From Escherichia phage ECO71P1, in the sequence record OP172789: a stretch of DNA of 64,000 bases. The stretch is one strand, 5' to 3'. Under the pieces are notes generated by a model that saw nothing but the letters and a program-made list of their open reading frames with translations, was not told where the DNA came from and made no database searches. Within the stretch, counting starts at the first letter, position 1, and every line of letters begins with the position of its first letter. The position numbers and the translations under genes were made by a program. Shown here piece by piece: positions 11,191-59,065 of the stretch.

Positions 11191-11397
11191 TTTTATTCCT
11201 TAACAAATTCAGAGTAGTGTTTGGCCGCAGCCGATTGGTGGTGAGCCATAACACCTTCAAGGGTGGGAAGCTCTACGTGCTTAGGTTCTGACGAATTTAA
11301 CAGACCTTCAAGCTCGATGTTCAATTCTTCGCTTTGCATAAATCACCTCTGCTTCAGTTCATAAAATGATTATAGTTGCTAGAAAAATAAAAGCAAA

Positions 11398-37521: not shown

Positions 37522-37581
37522 CATAGACTCCTTATATCTGATCAACAAATTATAATCTATAAGGAGTCTATAAGCAATATT

Positions 37582-44640: not shown

Positions 44641-46179
44641 TTAGATAAGAACGTCACGACCTTCAACGCGACGCACAGCATCATCTTTAGAGTAGATTAG
44701 CGTGTATGTTGCATAGTATTCGGTGCGCCCATCGGAAGTGGTTTCAGTATCAAAATCTACAGTCAGCCAGTAACCGATAGTTTCAACCTGCCGCCAAGCG
44801 GTGTTGTCACCGGAAGTTTGCGTGATGTATTGTTTCTGAATCTCAGTCAGCGCCTTGCCAACAGAGATGGTGCCGTTAACCTTCGCATTGTCAACAGCAA
44901 CTTGAATCATGGCTTGTACAGTCGCTTTACCTTCTTCGTTTGCAGGCACGCGACCAAGATTCAAGAACATGCTGAACAGCTGAGAAGTGATAGCAGATTT
45001 AAGCCACATCTCGTTGGCATAAGTGTTCATGTCAACTGCTGCGGTAGACCCGCCCATCAATACGCCGCGCTGGAAGAATGCCAAGGTTTGTCCGGCCTGC
45101 TGAGTAGCACCGATGTAGTTCGCACGGTTTTGATCAGCAGTATCTGCGCGAGAGTCAGTTGAAACAGTCACGTTGCGAGTATCAAACTGATAATACATGT
45201 AGTTTTGAGTCGCATTCACAGTATTATAGTTTGTTGCCGCGAGGATTTCAGCAGGTGCTTGGTCGATGTAATCGTTTGCAAGGTTAGTTGCGCGAATCAT
45301 CATGCCAACGCCTGAGTACCCTTTCAGAGCGGTGTAGTATGACCCGATATTAGCGAACGAAGTCGAGAATAAATACATGTACATATTATTCTGCGAATGA
45401 GTCCACGCTGCCACAGCGGTAATTTCTTCCAGAGTTCGGTCAGCCCCAGCAAAAAGGAATGAGCCAAAGTTGTTGGAGATTTCCACAGATGCCGCGATGG
45501 CTTCTACCGGACTTGAAACGCCCTGGCCTGCAACGGTTACGGTGCCAGTGGTGGTCCAACCCAATGCCTGAGACGGGTCGGTCGGTTGGCCTGTGACGTT
45601 GATAGACAGATTGCCTGCACCAGCGGTCGACGGCGCTGCTTCCAGCGTGAACTGCTGAGTATTAGCGTTCCAATACACTTCTGCATCAGCAAGTGCAGGC
45701 ACCGACGTGCCACCTTCTGCTGCAAATTTAGTATTGATTGCCGTTTCCAGAAGTTCAGCCACATTTGCCAGGCTTGTTGCCGCTGAAAGGTTAATTGCGT
45801 CAGTCAGGTAGTCTGTGCCATCATAAGTGATGCTTAAGATAGCGCCAGTGAATGCTTGAAACGTAGCAAGCACTTTAGGCTCAGTATCACCGATGACCAT
45901 TGCTGGAATCGCAGTTGAAACAATACGCGAGAAGCTGATTGAATCAGGCGAGTTAATTTGCTTGCTGATGAATCCAAAATATAATGCTGCGCGCTTATAT
46001 TCTTCGGAAGAATAACCGAAATATGATCCAACAGCATCAGCCGTTGAAAATTCTGCTACAATGCCTGGCGGCAGAACTGTATTAGAAGTCATGACGCGAA
46101 GCGACAGTTTGCGAACTGCAACAGCCGCGCCTGCTCCGACCCCTGATACAATTTTAATATAACGAGATTGACTGATCAC
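44641..46179 (-). CDS. tail sheath protein
   Basis: 512 aa; precedes tube-like gene; GTG start with AAGAGGA RBS; assignment by position and size. Confidence 0.6.
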   Translation of the reverse strand: MISQSRYIKIVSGVGAGAAVAVRKLSLRVMTSNTVLPPGIVAEFSTADAVGSYFGYSSEEYKRAALYFGFISKQINSPDSISFSRIVSTAIPAMVIGDTEPKVLATFQAFTGAILSITYDGTDYLTDAINLSAATSLANVAELLETAINTKFAAEGGTSVPALADAEVYWNANTQQFTLEAAPSTAGAGNLSINVTGQPTDPSQALGWTTTGTVTVAGQGVSSPVEAIAASVEISNNFGSFLFAGADRTLEEITAVAAWTHSQNNMYMYLFSTSFANIGSYYTALKGYSGVGMMIRATNLANDYIDQAPAEILAATNYNTVNATQNYMYYQFDTRNVTVSTDSRADTADQNRANYIGATQQAGQTLAFFQRGVLMGGSTAAVDMNTYANEMWLKSAITSQLFSMFLNLGRVPANEEGKATVQAMIQVAVDNAKVNGTISVGKALTEIQKQYITQTSGDNTAWRQVETIGYWLTVDFDTETTSDGRTEYYATYTLIYSKDDAVRRVEGRDVLI

Positions 46180-51887: not shown

Positions 51888-51994
51888 CCACCCTCAAATA
51901 AGTATTGTGTATTATATCTAATGAAAAAAACTTAGGCAAACAATAATTATGGTTTGAATATGTATAACAACCGATATAGCCGCGCCTTAATTAG

Positions 51995-54232: not shown

Positions 54233-56608
54233 TCAACCTTGCTTCGGTGAATTAGTAGGATTATTGAGTGCTCCGTATGCTTGAGAGCAATCACCCTTCA
54301 ACCACTCCTTGAATGAGTTCACATCTAATTCGTGGATTGAGTCGAATCCATTCCAACCGTTACCAAATGATGCTTGATAAGCTTCTTTCGCTTCTTCTGC
54401 TGAATCGAATCCAAGCATACACTTGTGTTCATCAAACTCGCCAGAGTAGTTATCGTTTTGGTTCACGATAAAGACTTTCGGCGACTTCAGATTTGGACCC
54501 ACAAAGCAGTCTACTTCATCACCGTCTGCACCCTTGGTGCCCTTGATGAATCCGTAGTGGTGCGGCATCTTCACGGCCCATTCACCGTCAAGGCTGTTTC
54601 CTCTACGAATGCTGTTGCGCGGATTCTCAATGCCAAGAATCATTCCGTGCAACTTCATCTTAGGTAATGATGCTGCGTCCATTTTACCAACGTTGTGGCG
54701 TAAGTTGACGACGTGTCCTTTAACGCTTGGAAGGGTAGACGGTTGCACCGACCGTGAATCTTTTTGAGGGTCAAAATCCACATCCTGACCTTCTTTCAGG
54801 TAGTAATCCGCAATACCCTCCAGACCTTCTTTCAACTGCGTTAGGACATCAACCTGATGGCTTGATTCATCATCGGTGTCGTCCATGTTGATTTCGACAG
54901 GTGCTCTGTCAGGGTTTTCTGCCAACTCACCACGCGCGGCACCCTCTGGCATAATACCTGTTTCGCTATAGAACTGGCCGCCCATCTTGACAACATCAGC
55001 TTTCGCCTGTTCAATATCGGCCTTACCTTGCAGGACTTCACCAGCAGACTTGCCAAGCAATGCCATATTCTCTGGAGACATCCCTGGGGTTTCTTCTGCT
55101 GCGTCTTCCGGCAGACGGTTGTAGCCGCTGTTTTTGTCGTCTTTGATGCGGTCGCGCTCTTCATCAGGAGAAATGACGCCAGCATCAATAAGAGTTTTGC
55201 CAGTGTTGGCTCGCTTATCATTGATTTCTGCAAGTTGAGTAGCAGTAAGTGAGCCAACTGGTTCCCATGCAACCTTAACATCGACATCCACCCCTTCTGA
55301 TTTGAGAAGGATTTTGTAATGGCGGTCGAGAATTTTTGTCAGGTCATGCTGCTGGCACGTTTCCAACTCTTCGTGATAGCTGACCATCTCGAATTCACCA
55401 GTAGCGTTAAAGCCTTTCGGCGAAGTCCCAAGTAGTTTGGTTGACGGAACTTTTGCGATTGCGGCCACCAGCTGGTACTGGTTCATGATGATGCTGTCGA
55501 AGTCTGACAAGTTGATGTCGAACTGGTCCATCTCTTCTTTTTGGCCAAGCACTTTGACTGCATAGTTATCGCGGTACTTGATCCACATCATCAGACGTTC
55601 TGCAAAAGACCGCTCATTGGCAATCGCCTTGTCAACGTCGGTCCGCAGCGTGGTTGTACGCTTGGACATCGCCAGCAATGGCGCTTCGTTAGCGGTACGT
55701 TCAGCGGCATAGATGCGTTCATAAATCTGCTGAGTCAGAGGAATGCCGCCGTAAATATAAGTTGGCTTGAGAATATCAGCTGGCTCATCATTGCGCAAGA
55801 TGATGAGGTGACTGCGATGATAACGTTGTCCGCTGATCACCCAGTATTCTGGATCATAGAAGTGCTGTGATGCAGGGTCGGCGGTGTTTTCAGACGTTAA
55901 AAATGGCATCATCCAATAAGGGTCAACCTGAATGATTCCCTTATAAGACCCCTTTGTCACACCATCAATGTTAAAAGGCTTGCTGTAATATTCTGGATCA
56001 TCGCTACGCACATCAAATATGATGACGCGGATACCAAAAATATTTTTGAATCGTTCGGCTTCAACTAAGTGCTCTTTGATATTAAATTCTTTATCAATTT
56101 GCTTTAGGCGTTCGCTTGCCTGCACTGACAATTCTGACTCAGAACTGGATTTGACTTCCCAACCTTTACGGACCGCATCGCGTCCTACCATGGAACACGC
56201 CTTGTTCACCAGCCAATGCTGTGCGATGATGGCACAAGCTTGATAGCCGATGAATGACTGTGACAAATACCAGTTTTGAAGTTGAATAGGTACTGTGTAT
56301 GGGTTGACCTGCCCTTCTGAACTGATGTTCTTCAAGGCATTATCCATGACTTTTTTGGATACTGTTGCGGAATCGACTGAACGGCCTTTTATGATAGCAA
56401 CACCGTCGCCATTAATATCAGGCTCATATAAAGGGAAGTCATCAACCGTTTTAAAGGTCGGTCGATTGCTTTCAGTCTTTTCCCAGCGTTGACCGCTGCC
56501 GCGCCTTTCAAGGCGTTCAAACGGTGCCAATGGGTCGCCTGGCGGCATCTCCGCTGGTTCGGCTTCTGGTTGCGTCTTCTCCCAGAGTTTTATGCCAAGA
56601 ATTTTCAT
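54233..56608 (-). CDS. portal protein with C-terminal ~140-aa extension matching the family I inorganic pyrophosphatase signature
   Basis: Large gene between terminase and Mu F-like gene; C-terminal YGFIKGTKGADGDEVDCFV and AEEAKEAYQASF segments. Confidence 0.6.
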   Translation of the reverse strand: MKILGIKLWEKTQPEAEPAEMPPGDPLAPFERLERRGSGQRWEKTESNRPTFKTVDDFPLYEPDINGDGVAIIKGRSVDSATVSKKVMDNALKNISSEGQVNPYTVPIQLQNWYLSQSFIGYQACAIIAQHWLVNKACSMVGRDAVRKGWEVKSSSESELSVQASERLKQIDKEFNIKEHLVEAERFKNIFGIRVIIFDVRSDDPEYYSKPFNIDGVTKGSYKGIIQVDPYWMMPFLTSENTADPASQHFYDPEYWVISGQRYHRSHLIILRNDEPADILKPTYIYGGIPLTQQIYERIYAAERTANEAPLLAMSKRTTTLRTDVDKAIANERSFAERLMMWIKYRDNYAVKVLGQKEEMDQFDINLSDFDSIIMNQYQLVAAIAKVPSTKLLGTSPKGFNATGEFEMVSYHEELETCQQHDLTKILDRHYKILLKSEGVDVDVKVAWEPVGSLTATQLAEINDKRANTGKTLIDAGVISPDEERDRIKDDKNSGYNRLPEDAAEETPGMSPENMALLGKSAGEVLQGKADIEQAKADVVKMGGQFYSETGIMPEGAARGELAENPDRAPVEINMDDTDDESSHQVDVLTQLKEGLEGIADYYLKEGQDVDFDPQKDSRSVQPSTLPSVKGHVVNLRHNVGKMDAASLPKMKLHGMILGIENPRNSIRRGNSLDGEWAVKMPHHYGFIKGTKGADGDEVDCFVGPNLKSPKVFIVNQNDNYSGEFDEHKCMLGFDSAEEAKEAYQASFGNGWNGFDSIHELDVNSFKEWLKGDCSQAYGALNNPTNSPKQG

Positions 56609-56770
56609 TGTTAACGCCACCTGACAGTGAAAGGGAATCAATCTATATTATAAATATTCATGTGTTTGTAAGCAAATGATATGTATGGTGATCATAAATA
56701 GTTCATAAAATATTTTGCTTTTGTATCATTTTGAGTTATATTTTAGTTAACCAAACGAAAGGAGATTGAA

Positions 56771-57187
56771 ATGAGCACAACAATTGTATTTGTCGTCCTG
56801 CACAACGGCGAAGTCGTTAACGTATGTGAATGTGAAGAACTGGCAAAGGCCACTGCCGCGCGATACGAAGGTGCTACTATTGACCCGTGGATTTTAGATG
56901 CGCGAAACGTCTTGCAGGCGACTTTGGATGAGTGGCTGTTGGGTCGCAAAGTCTATCCAGTAGACAATATCGACTCCATTCAAGGTGAAACAGTATACTT
57001 TGAAGATGAATGCGTTCGCGGAATCGGCAAATTCATGGGATTGTGCCCATCTTCATCCAAAAACAAATTTTATCGTATTCAAGTTGAAGAAAACGATATG
57101 TTTGACAAAGTCACGCGCTCGATTGTTCCTGGCGGCGGCACTCCAATTTTTATGGCAGAATCAGACATCAAGGGGATTATCAAATGA
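56771..57187 (+). CDS. hypothetical protein (138 aa), plus-strand gene between portal and terminase
   Basis: Strong RBS AAAGGAG; opposite strand to flanking morphogenesis genes. Confidence 0.55.
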   Translation: MSTTIVFVVLHNGEVVNVCECEELAKATAARYEGATIDPWILDARNVLQATLDEWLLGRKVYPVDNIDSIQGETVYFEDECVRGIGKFMGLCPSSSKNKFYRIQVEENDMFDKVTRSIVPGGGTPIFMAESDIKGIIK

Positions 57188-57423
57188 GAACTTTAACCGA
57201 ACTCGATGTTCTGAAAGATGTTGCAGCCGCGCTGGGCGTTGAAGTCTCCGAAAAGTCGACACTGGGCGCGCTGCGTCGCGATTTACTCGAAGCCGTCGAC
57301 CGCAACGATTTTGACCGTAAGTGTTTGCAAAAGAAGATTCGACAGGCAGTAAGGGCGGGTAAGCGATTCCGTGCCAGGTCGTTTGCCGCGAGAAAACTCG
57401 ACCTTCAGCACGGAATGCTTTAA
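57184..57423 (+). CDS. hypothetical basic protein (79 aa)
   Basis: ATGA overlap with the preceding gene. Confidence 0.5.
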   Translation: MRTLTELDVLKDVAAALGVEVSEKSTLGALRRDLLEAVDRNDFDRKCLQKKIRQAVRAGKRFRARSFAARKLDLQHGML

Positions 57424-57426
57424 TTG

Positions 57427-58887
57427 TTAAAGGTTAGAGAAGAAGCCGGATGCTGCAACAATTGGTTTCATCAATGCCATGATTGCTGCGTCCGCTTTGT
57501 TAGGCGATTTGACTCCACGCTTTGCCATATCCTTTTTCGATTCAACTTTGAACTTGCCAAGTACAGACGTGTCTTTGCGCGGCGCTGACATTTCAAAAAG
57601 AAACGTCTCAATTTCTTCCGCAGACCAAGCAGGAATCCCAAGTTCTGGGATGCCGTCTGTGTCGATGGAAATCAACTCATCAGTCGGGTATACGGCCTGC
57701 CCTGTTGCATACTCATATGTCTTCCTGAATCGTTCGGCAATCTCAGTCCATTTTTGCGCTTTTATGTTTGCGAAATGGTCTTTATTGAGTATTTCAACGT
57801 GTGGTAACTCAAGGAAAACGTCATCAGGATCATCAACAGCACCTTGCGCGTTGAACGCATTAAATTCGATTCTTGGGAATGTTGGATTTTCATGGATTGC
57901 ATACTCATTGAGCTCATCAAATTTTGAACCAGCAAATGCACCAACACCGATTGCGTCATAGGTAATTGATGCGCCGAATGTCAATGCGTCTTTCCAAACT
58001 CCGCTTGCGGACTTAAGCAATTCATCTTCCAGACCTTCCCATGTCTTGATGCCGCGCAATACGTTGCCCGTGACAAATGCTGTGGCGTTTAAGTCGTCGC
58101 CGTCGTCCGCCACGTCAAAGCCTATACGGTTAGACCCTGACAAGCTCCATCCCAGCGTAGGGTGTTTGTGGAGGTTTAGCGCGGCCTTGACGAATGCACG
58201 GTTAATGACCGACTTGTCGCCGCCTGTCTTCGGTACTCCGCCATAAACGTGCTCTGCCTTTTTCGGGTCGCGCTCATACATGCCAGCAATAACGTCCAGC
58301 ATTGTTTGCGACAAGAATGGGTTGTCTTGCCAGTTGATCTTCTTAACGATGGCATTCTTCGGCGGTCGCATGACAAAGTTCTGGTAAACGAAATCGGCCT
58401 CTTCATCAGGGTTAAATATGATCCATATTTCGGACCCTTCCTTACGAATTGTCGGCTCAATAATGTCCCACTGCTCTTCAGTCAGTGCGTGCGCTTCCTC
58501 AAGCCAAAGAACATCAACGCCTTCGGTTGATTTGATTTCGTCAACGTTGCGTGCGATACCGTAAAATAAGAATTCAGATTTTGTTCTTTTATGCTCAATG
58601 GAGTTTTTTAATAAGTTGAACTCGTCTTTAAAATCAGAAATCTCTATCTTATCTTTTAATAGCGTATATACTGATTCAGAAATCTTGTTCTGGAATTGTC
58701 GAACGCAAAGGAATTTTAATTTAAAGTTTGCCGCCAAATAAATAGCAAAACCAGCGGCATCATGCGATTTGGAAGATGCACGACCGCCGTATATAACTTT
58801 GTATCGCGCTTTCGTCTTCCAGACTTCTCTTAAAGCAGGATTCAACTGGTACATGACTTTCCAATTATGTGTTAATATTTTATTCAT
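57427..58887 (-). CDS. terminase large subunit
   Basis: Walker A YGGRASSKS near the N-terminus; 486 aa; C-terminal nuclease-like acidic residues. Confidence 0.8.
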   Translation of the reverse strand: MNKILTHNWKVMYQLNPALREVWKTKARYKVIYGGRASSKSHDAAGFAIYLAANFKLKFLCVRQFQNKISESVYTLLKDKIEISDFKDEFNLLKNSIEHKRTKSEFLFYGIARNVDEIKSTEGVDVLWLEEAHALTEEQWDIIEPTIRKEGSEIWIIFNPDEEADFVYQNFVMRPPKNAIVKKINWQDNPFLSQTMLDVIAGMYERDPKKAEHVYGGVPKTGGDKSVINRAFVKAALNLHKHPTLGWSLSGSNRIGFDVADDGDDLNATAFVTGNVLRGIKTWEGLEDELLKSASGVWKDALTFGASITYDAIGVGAFAGSKFDELNEYAIHENPTFPRIEFNAFNAQGAVDDPDDVFLELPHVEILNKDHFANIKAQKWTEIAERFRKTYEYATGQAVYPTDELISIDTDGIPELGIPAWSAEEIETFLFEMSAPRKDTSVLGKFKVESKKDMAKRGVKSPNKADAAIMALMKPIVAASGFFSNL

Positions 58888-58953: not shown

Positions 58954-58982
58954 GTGATCTTTTTGGCCAGATTATTTCTGGC
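58954..58982 (+). terminator. hairpin plus T7 tract (TGGCCAG ATTATTTC CTGGCCA TTTTTTT)
   Basis: Read directly; orientation favours plus strand. Confidence 0.45.
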
Positions 58983-59001
58983 CATTTTTTTAATTTAAAT
59001 T

Positions 59002-59029
59002 CACAAAAAGTTTGCCTTTCTGAAATTCT
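59002..59029 (+). promoter_or_regulatory. sigma70-like promoter (-35 TTGCCT, 16 bp, -10 TATAAT)
   Basis: Consensus -10 read directly upstream of 59066 gene. Confidence 0.55.
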
Positions 59030-59065
59030 GCATTATAATCATATTAACTCAAAACCGGAGGTAAT

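Follow-up and report, generated by a model that had tools for sequence, protein, structure and literature searches.

This locus raises the question of why two small genes lie on the plus strand between the genes for the portal protein and the large terminase subunit (TerL), whether they were inserted there, and what their products, here called gpA and gpB, contribute to infection. The window, i.e. the entire stretch of 64,000 nucleotides analysed from Escherichia phage ECO71P1 (OP172789), is that of a Wifcevirus and is 97.6% identical to Escherichia phage vB_EcoM_WFH. This genus is distantly related to the PB1-like phages of Pseudomonas, genus Pbunavirus (PMC11990801).

The gene pair and its control region

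The initial annotation had described two coupled plus-strand genes of 138 and 79 amino acids (aa) at 56771-57423, equipped with a strong ribosome-binding site, flanked by portal and terminase genes and convergent to the latter. This layout holds throughout: the open reading frames are exactly as described, the gpB start and the gpA stop share a 4-nt overlap (ATGA), and the flanking genes match the Phage_portal_3 and Terminase_3 families. In addition to the gpA Shine-Dalgarno sequence, gpB has a ribosome-binding site of its own, AAGGGG, 8 nt before its ATG. gpB and TerL are convergent, as their stop codons are separated by 3 nt, and gpA diverges from the portal start across 162 bp. The features referred to below are as follows.

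54233-56608, minus strand: portal protein (Phage_portal_3, E 3.4e-88), first gene of the head operon, diverging from gpA
56609-56770: control region between the divergent portal and gpA genes, 162 bp, AT-rich, GC 0.28
56647-56675, minus strand: portal operon promoter candidate, TTGCTT-17-TATAAT, by consensus match only, same family as the gpA candidate
56676-56695: imperfect 20-bp palindrome, ATGATAT-GTATGG-TGATCAT, between the divergent promoter candidates
56715-56742, plus strand: sigma-70-type promoter candidate for gpA-gpB, TTGCTT-16-TATATT, by consensus match only
56757-56764, plus strand: Shine-Dalgarno sequence of gpA, GAAAGGAG, 6 nt before the ATG, annotated as a ribosome-binding site in phage Mansfield
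56771-57187, plus strand: gpA, ATG 56771 to TGA 57187, 138 aa, 15.4 kDa, pI 4.7
57184-57423, plus strand: gpB, ATG 57184 to TAA 57423, 79 aa, 9.0 kDa, pI 10.3
57427-58854, minus strand: TerL (Terminase_3, E 3.2e-37), a lone minus-strand gene
58917-58888, minus strand: TerL promoter candidate, TTGATA-18-TATAAT
58964-58994, plus strand: hairpin GGCCAGA-loop-TCTGGCC with a subsequent T7 run, located just past the TerL start; downstream of gpB it is the first intrinsic terminator predicted on the plus strand
11369-11396 (minus), 37549-37577 (minus), 45958-45985 (plus), 51911-51939 (minus), 56647-56675 (minus), 56715-56742 (plus) and 59012-59039 (plus): copies of TTGCYT-N16/17-TATAWT

Both genes are encoded in all 28 Wifcevirus records matched by the region, which represent about 24 distinct genomes, with amino-acid identities of 94-100%. 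Compared with eight Wifcevirus loci, gpA shows a dN/dS of 0.04-0.13 and gpB one of 0-0.05; the values for TerL and the portal N-terminus are about 0.01. The GC contents of gpA (0.448) and gpB (0.525) compare with 0.463 for the window. gpA and gpB are real, constrained and native genes, as the dN/dS ratios, the presence in 28 records and the distant homologs in other genera together go beyond what is expected of chance open reading frames. In every annotated record, from more than 20 Wifcevirus genomes, each carries the label "hypothetical protein". An overlapping 85-aa open reading frame in the +1 frame (56985-57242) is not a gene; the C-terminus of a frameshifted gpA in one public assembly (P0008) follows this frame, probably owing to an assembly error.

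Two details of the neighbouring genes deserve mention. The portal C-terminus (residues ~660-782; 54233-54700 in the window) is an InPase domain (PF18823, E 3e-46), of a type also present in large polyvalent/DarB-like phage proteins in PHROGs. For TerL, the mechanical call starts at ATG 58887 while the Mansfield and WFH annotations use ATG 58854, and vB_Eco4M-7 is annotated with a longer, 486-aa form. The strong TerL promoter candidate would place the transcription start downstream of ATG 58887, which supports ATG 58854.

The 162-bp control region is nearly invariant across Wifcevirus, even in comparison to a genome whose gpA differs at a dS of 0.84, and it is more conserved than the synonymous sites of the flanking genes, pointing to dense regulatory content. 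TTGCYT-N16/17-TATAWT, the motif common to both divergent promoter candidates, has seven exact matches in the window, where chance alone would give 0.09. Of these, six are located 20-35 nt upstream of a start codon with a ribosome-binding site, and the seventh is antisense inside the tail-sheath reading frame. Genes behind these candidates include those for the portal and the prohead protease, one gene each in the baseplate and replication regions, and gpA. Judged from this distribution, gpA-gpB appear to use a promoter type of the morphogenetic operons that is read by the host RNA polymerase (RNAP). The family is nevertheless not a specific marker of late genes, since the copy at 11369-11396 precedes the replication-region gene. 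Beyond this promoter family, no operator motif common to the control region and other intergenic regions was found.

From the gpB stop up to position 58964, no plus-strand intrinsic terminator is predicted. Transcription leaving gpB probably runs antisense into TerL. The hairpin at 58964-58994, which may belong to the gpA-gpB transcription unit, has a conserved stem and a variable loop. Mansfield and ECML-117 carry an insertion 14 nt after the T-run of this hairpin (L001, L013), a 231-bp gene equipped with a ribosome-binding site of its own, and vB_Eco4M-7 gp32 is the same gene at the corresponding position. This 7.8-kDa protein was found in virions by mass spectrometry (MS; PMC7048862), and the gene is absent from the window.

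The junction of the block with TerL differs within the lineage. Wifcevirus and Kyle-like phages have no gap, or overlapping convergent genes, with the last cassette gene of the Kyle-like phages overlapping the TerL 3' end, whereas a strong intrinsic terminator (L007 2235-2258, minus strand) occupies a 36-nt gap between the last cassette gene and TerL in Pseudomonas phage 14-1 (PMC3008698). The Pbunavirus terminator weakens the case for antisense control of TerL as a conserved feature of the lineage. Moreover, untranslated antisense RNA is prone to Rho termination in E. coli. Antisense control of TerL is hence regarded here as a possibility and not as a finding.

An opposite-strand cassette in PB1-like phages

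Relatives of the portal protein, at 47-66% identity, occur in five further genera, namely Kylevirus, Pbunavirus, Myosmarvirus, Carpasinavirus and that of a Xylella phage. The relatives inspected all have TerL and portal in the same orientation, with an intervening block of opposite-strand genes whose content is as follows.

Wifcevirus: 2 genes (gpA, gpB)
Xanthomonas phage Carpasina (Carpasinavirus): 4 genes
Pantoea phage Kyle: 5 genes
Metagenomic Kyle-like genomes (L009, L010): 6-7 genes
Serratia phage WR01 (Myosmarvirus): 7 genes
Pseudomonas phage 14-1 (Pbunavirus): 14 genes, gp04-gp17

The most widely common cassette member is a DUF2786/DUF7168 gene, present in 14-1 (gp08), Kyle (gp24), WR01 and Carpasina; it was not found in the window. 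In Kyle-like phages and Pbunavirus, the cassette gene adjacent to the portal is a gpA homolog. The gpA-gpB pair itself is not universal in the lineage, as family HMMs detect neither homolog in the cassettes of Myosmarvirus and Carpasinavirus. In Kyle-like phages a Trypsin_2 serine protease gene is located between the gpA and gpB homologs (L002 4376-4921; L009 6426-6998; L010 6444-7004). The Kyle protease has a lipobox-like LALAGC near its N-terminus, and such an accessory gene is unusual in a virulent phage. The extra genes of the Kyle-like cassettes were either lost by Wifcevirus or never acquired.

Judged from gene order and homology, the opposite-strand cassette separating TerL from portal is an ancestral feature of the PB1-like lineage, comprising Pbunavirus, Kylevirus, Wifcevirus, Myosmarvirus and Carpasinavirus. 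The Wifcevirus arrangement is then best read as a reduced form of this cassette and not as an insertion, given the presence of both genes in all records, their constraint, a GC content near that of the genome, the missing terminator and the positional orthologs. The same layout can equally be described as TerL being a single inverted gene within a block on the other strand. The initial annotation had taken the site for a typical moron or accessory insertion, a view that must be abandoned for these two genes on the same evidence: they occur in every Wifcevirus record under strong constraint, with GC near that of the genome and with positional orthologs in other genera. Recent horizontal insertion is ruled out by conservation, composition and synteny. 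Nor do the usual hallmarks of a moron apply. A promoter candidate is present but no terminator is predicted before 58964, presence is uniform and not patchy among close relatives (28/28 records carry both genes), and the base composition is not atypical (0.448 and 0.525 versus 0.463). The related proposal that the position is an accessory, host-modulating site is upheld in part, as the locus is variable and holds host-modulating genes in Pbunavirus, while these two genes are no insertion. The layout is ordinary and already annotated, and it is normal for PB1-like phages, in which the gap between TerL and portal should be read as an ancestral opposite-strand cassette and not as an insertion site.

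Homologs, predicted folds and the virion

gpA corresponds to gp35 and gpB to gp34 of vB_Eco4M-7. The gpA ortholog of Kyle, gp28, shows 25% identity across the full length (E 4e-10), and the gpB ortholog, gp26, is recovered with the family HMM. gpA matches phrog_5124 with E 6.9e-6 and 14-1 gp17 matches the same family with E 1.6e-88; a gpA family HMM built without any Pbunavirus sequence detects 14-1 gp17 with E 5.7e-12. On these profile matches, combined with the shared position as first gene diverging from the portal, gpA is assigned to the phrog_5124/Pbunavirus gp17-like family. No gpB homolog was found in the Pbunavirus block. Among 1.84 billion representative proteins, scanned in full with HMMER, only five gave gpA hits. 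One of these five, the 1410-aa repeat protein P0014, was judged spurious. Three proteins (P0011-P0013) are relatives at 42-56% identity. Scans of IMG/VR and metagenomes yielded near-identical Wifceviruses only. Neither protein has a match in Pfam, NCBIfam or the sequences of the PDB, nor among the defence systems of PADLOC, and PHROGs assigns no functional category to either.

In the gpA model, a linker helix connects an N-terminal beta-beta-alpha-beta domain to a C-terminal SH3/Sm/KOW-like barrel, whose five predicted strands superpose on known SH3-like members (Sm, Tudor, KOW). This barrel is a generic fold and tells little about function. The gpB model consists of four helices. Its N-terminal part (residues 6-40) forms a SAP-like helix-extended loop-helix, and the C-terminal half is rich in Arg/Lys, with a pI of 11.9. 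Its best structural matches are SAP domains (PIAS1, SIZ1) and DNA/RNA-binding modules with the helix-extended loop-helix of the Rho N-terminal domain type; the Pfam SAP, HeH and Rho_N profiles give no match to the gpB sequence at E values up to 5. gpB and its Kyle-like orthologs have in common a DVAAxLG..V motif and a conserved cysteine, and their basic tail contains an aromatic residue with Arg after it. The basic character, the modelled SAP-like four-helix fold and the arginine-rich helix with its conserved aromatic residue make binding of DNA or RNA the most likely activity of gpB. The opposite charge of the two proteins (pI 4.7 versus 10.3), their translational coupling and their co-conservation suggest that gpA and gpB may form a complex.

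As both genes are small and adjoin TerL, gpB is basic and looks DNA-binding, and the Wifcevirus records lack an annotated small terminase subunit (TerS), either product might be taken for the missing subunit. The TerS of this group is nonetheless encoded elsewhere. 14-1 gp76 is the structurally solved E217-type TerS (PDB 7UXE, E 2.5e-125), and 26 Escherichia (Wifcevirus) records encode a homolog of it with 39-41% identity (E ~1e-30). In phage FEC19 the homolog is gp02 (L021 2498-2971), whose map position is ~0.3 kb to the left of the window start. Furthermore, Pbunavirus has the gpA ortholog and the gp76 TerS together, the gpA fold is not TerS-like, gpB comprises only 79 aa, and searches of Pfam, PHROGs and the PDB gave no TerS match for gpA or gpB. 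A TerS identity for either protein is thereby effectively refuted. As a useful by-product, the Wifcevirus TerS, annotated as a hypothetical protein only, is recognized as unlinked from TerL, as in Pbunavirus phages including E217.

A structural role in the virion would agree with the conservation of the pair and its location next to head genes. MS of CsCl-purified virions identified 33 proteins of vB_Eco4M-7 and 28 of ECML-117, including others of only 7.6-7.8 kDa, but gp34, gp35 and their ECML-117 orthologs are absent from the published lists (PMC7048862). In agreement, searches of the PDB, which includes the virion models of E217 and Pa193, gave no match to gpA, its Pbunavirus ortholog or gpB. 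A synthetic vB_Eco4M-7 carrying gp35-HiBiT, for which gp35 was chosen as it directly follows the expected transcription start, was recovered at wild-type plaque numbers (336 versus 332; PMC11074155), and gp35 hence tolerates a tag. We consider it very improbable that gpA or gpB is a structural protein, and both virion MS and the PDB virion entries led to rejection of this assignment. For the initial annotation, conserved presence together with an essential structural role in all relatives would have spoken against an accessory function; the presence is indeed conserved, but the products are missing from virion MS and cryo-EM models. Since they are not in the virion, gpA and gpB presumably act inside the infected cell.

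Possible functions of gpA and gpB

Combining these observations, we propose that gpA-gpB are the conserved core of the ancestral opposite-strand cassette and constitute a non-virion, intracellular pair acting on nucleic acid, probably in a phage-intrinsic role, an explanation to which we assign about an even chance of being correct. The candidate promoter TTGCTT-16-TATATT, back to back with that of the portal operon, would drive both genes, which would then be translated as a coupled pair. gpB, a basic SAP-like protein, would bind DNA or RNA in the infected cell, and the acidic gpA, with its alpha/beta domain and SH3/Sm/KOW-like barrel, would most likely serve as its partner or adaptor. Together they may regulate the expression of phage genes, or DNA transactions, at about the time when the head genes are switched on. 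Alternatively, the pair may target a universally conserved host machine. Conservation of gpA in phages of Pseudomonas, Pantoea and Escherichia is what makes a phage-intrinsic role, or a universal host target, probable, and a host-specific takeover or anti-defence role is the less likely option. For an anti-defence role in particular, the analysis yielded no supporting evidence. A host-directed role for gpA nevertheless is conceivable, as the homologous Pbunavirus block has been called early and holds host-directed proteins (PMC8085984).

One specific version of the proposed intracellular pair, which we regard as a long shot, is a phage-intrinsic nucleic-acid switch, in which the modelled SAP-like domain and Arg-rich helix of gpB and the KOW/Sm-like barrel of gpA would act at the divergent promoter region or on transcription elongation and termination. 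In the latter case the pair might promote read-through of the hairpin at 58964-58994, which in some Wifceviruses lies upstream of plus-strand virion genes. Either mechanism could contribute to the infection cycle of ~10 minutes that has been reported. In a related scenario, terminator-less transcription from gpB, antisense into TerL, may delay terminase expression.

Two other explanations have to be weighed against the proposed phage-intrinsic pair. The reading of the initial annotation, according to which the genes are a moron or accessory module with anti-defence or host-modulating function at a permissive site, draws on the content of this site, which varies from 2 to 14 genes between genera, on the Pbunavirus cassette with YIP (gp11) and the RNAP-binding gp12 (PMC8085984), on the lipoprotein trypsin-like protease of Kyle-like cassettes, and on the non-virion nature of the products together with the tag tolerance of gp35. 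Both genes are however retained in 28/28 Wifcevirus records at dN/dS of at most 0.13, their GC is not atypical, they have no terminator of their own, and neither PADLOC nor any other family matches them; furthermore, phages infecting three host genera keep gpA at this position, a pattern uncommon among host-specific accessory genes. We therefore judge this explanation unlikely. The pair could instead be a non-virion helper of morphogenesis or packaging, co-expressed with the head genes and working with TerL or the portal at packaging initiation, or as a head-assembly chaperone. Compatible with such a function are the conserved position between TerL and portal, the promoter family common to the portal, prohead-protease and baseplate operons, a purifying selection approaching that of structural genes, and the DNA-binding appearance of gpB. 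On the other side, the proteins resemble no known assembly or packaging factors, the lineage has its own TerS elsewhere, the Pbunavirus block is regarded as early (PMC8085984), and the promoter family also precedes a replication-region gene (11369-11396), rendering a helper function improbable as well. The phage-intrinsic pair acting on nucleic acid is consequently the explanation we retain, and gpA (phrog_5124) and gpB, as conserved orphan genes, are reasonable functional targets in the therapeutically used Pbunavirus/Wifcevirus group.

Compared to known systems, gpA-gpB share with lambda-type morons that they are small opposite-strand genes between essential genes with a promoter of their own, a candidate here, but they lack their own terminator, show neither presence/absence polymorphism nor a compositional anomaly, and are conserved across genera. 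The homologous block of Pbunavirus, regarded as an early region, encodes the host-directed 14-1 proteins gp11 (YIP), which binds the diguanylate cyclase YfiN, and gp12, which binds RNAP alpha and inhibits transcription (PMC8085984; PMC10914365). These two are located between TerL and portal on the opposite strand, like gpA and gpB, but are unrelated to them in sequence, and a search of the window revealed no homolog of either. 14-1 gp17 (ORF16), by comparison, is a gpA homolog of similar size (133 versus 138 aa) and likewise the first opposite-strand gene diverging from the portal; it is only ~26% identical to gpA and heads a 14-gene block with a strong terminator before TerL (PMC3008698). A further parallel is offered by Kyle gp28/gp26 and the metagenomic Kyle-like relatives. 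Their cassettes differ by the lipoprotein trypsin-like protease gene between the pair and by 3-4 further genes, one of them DUF2786/DUF7168, whereas the gpA and gpB orthologs agree with the Wifcevirus pair in order, orientation and location.
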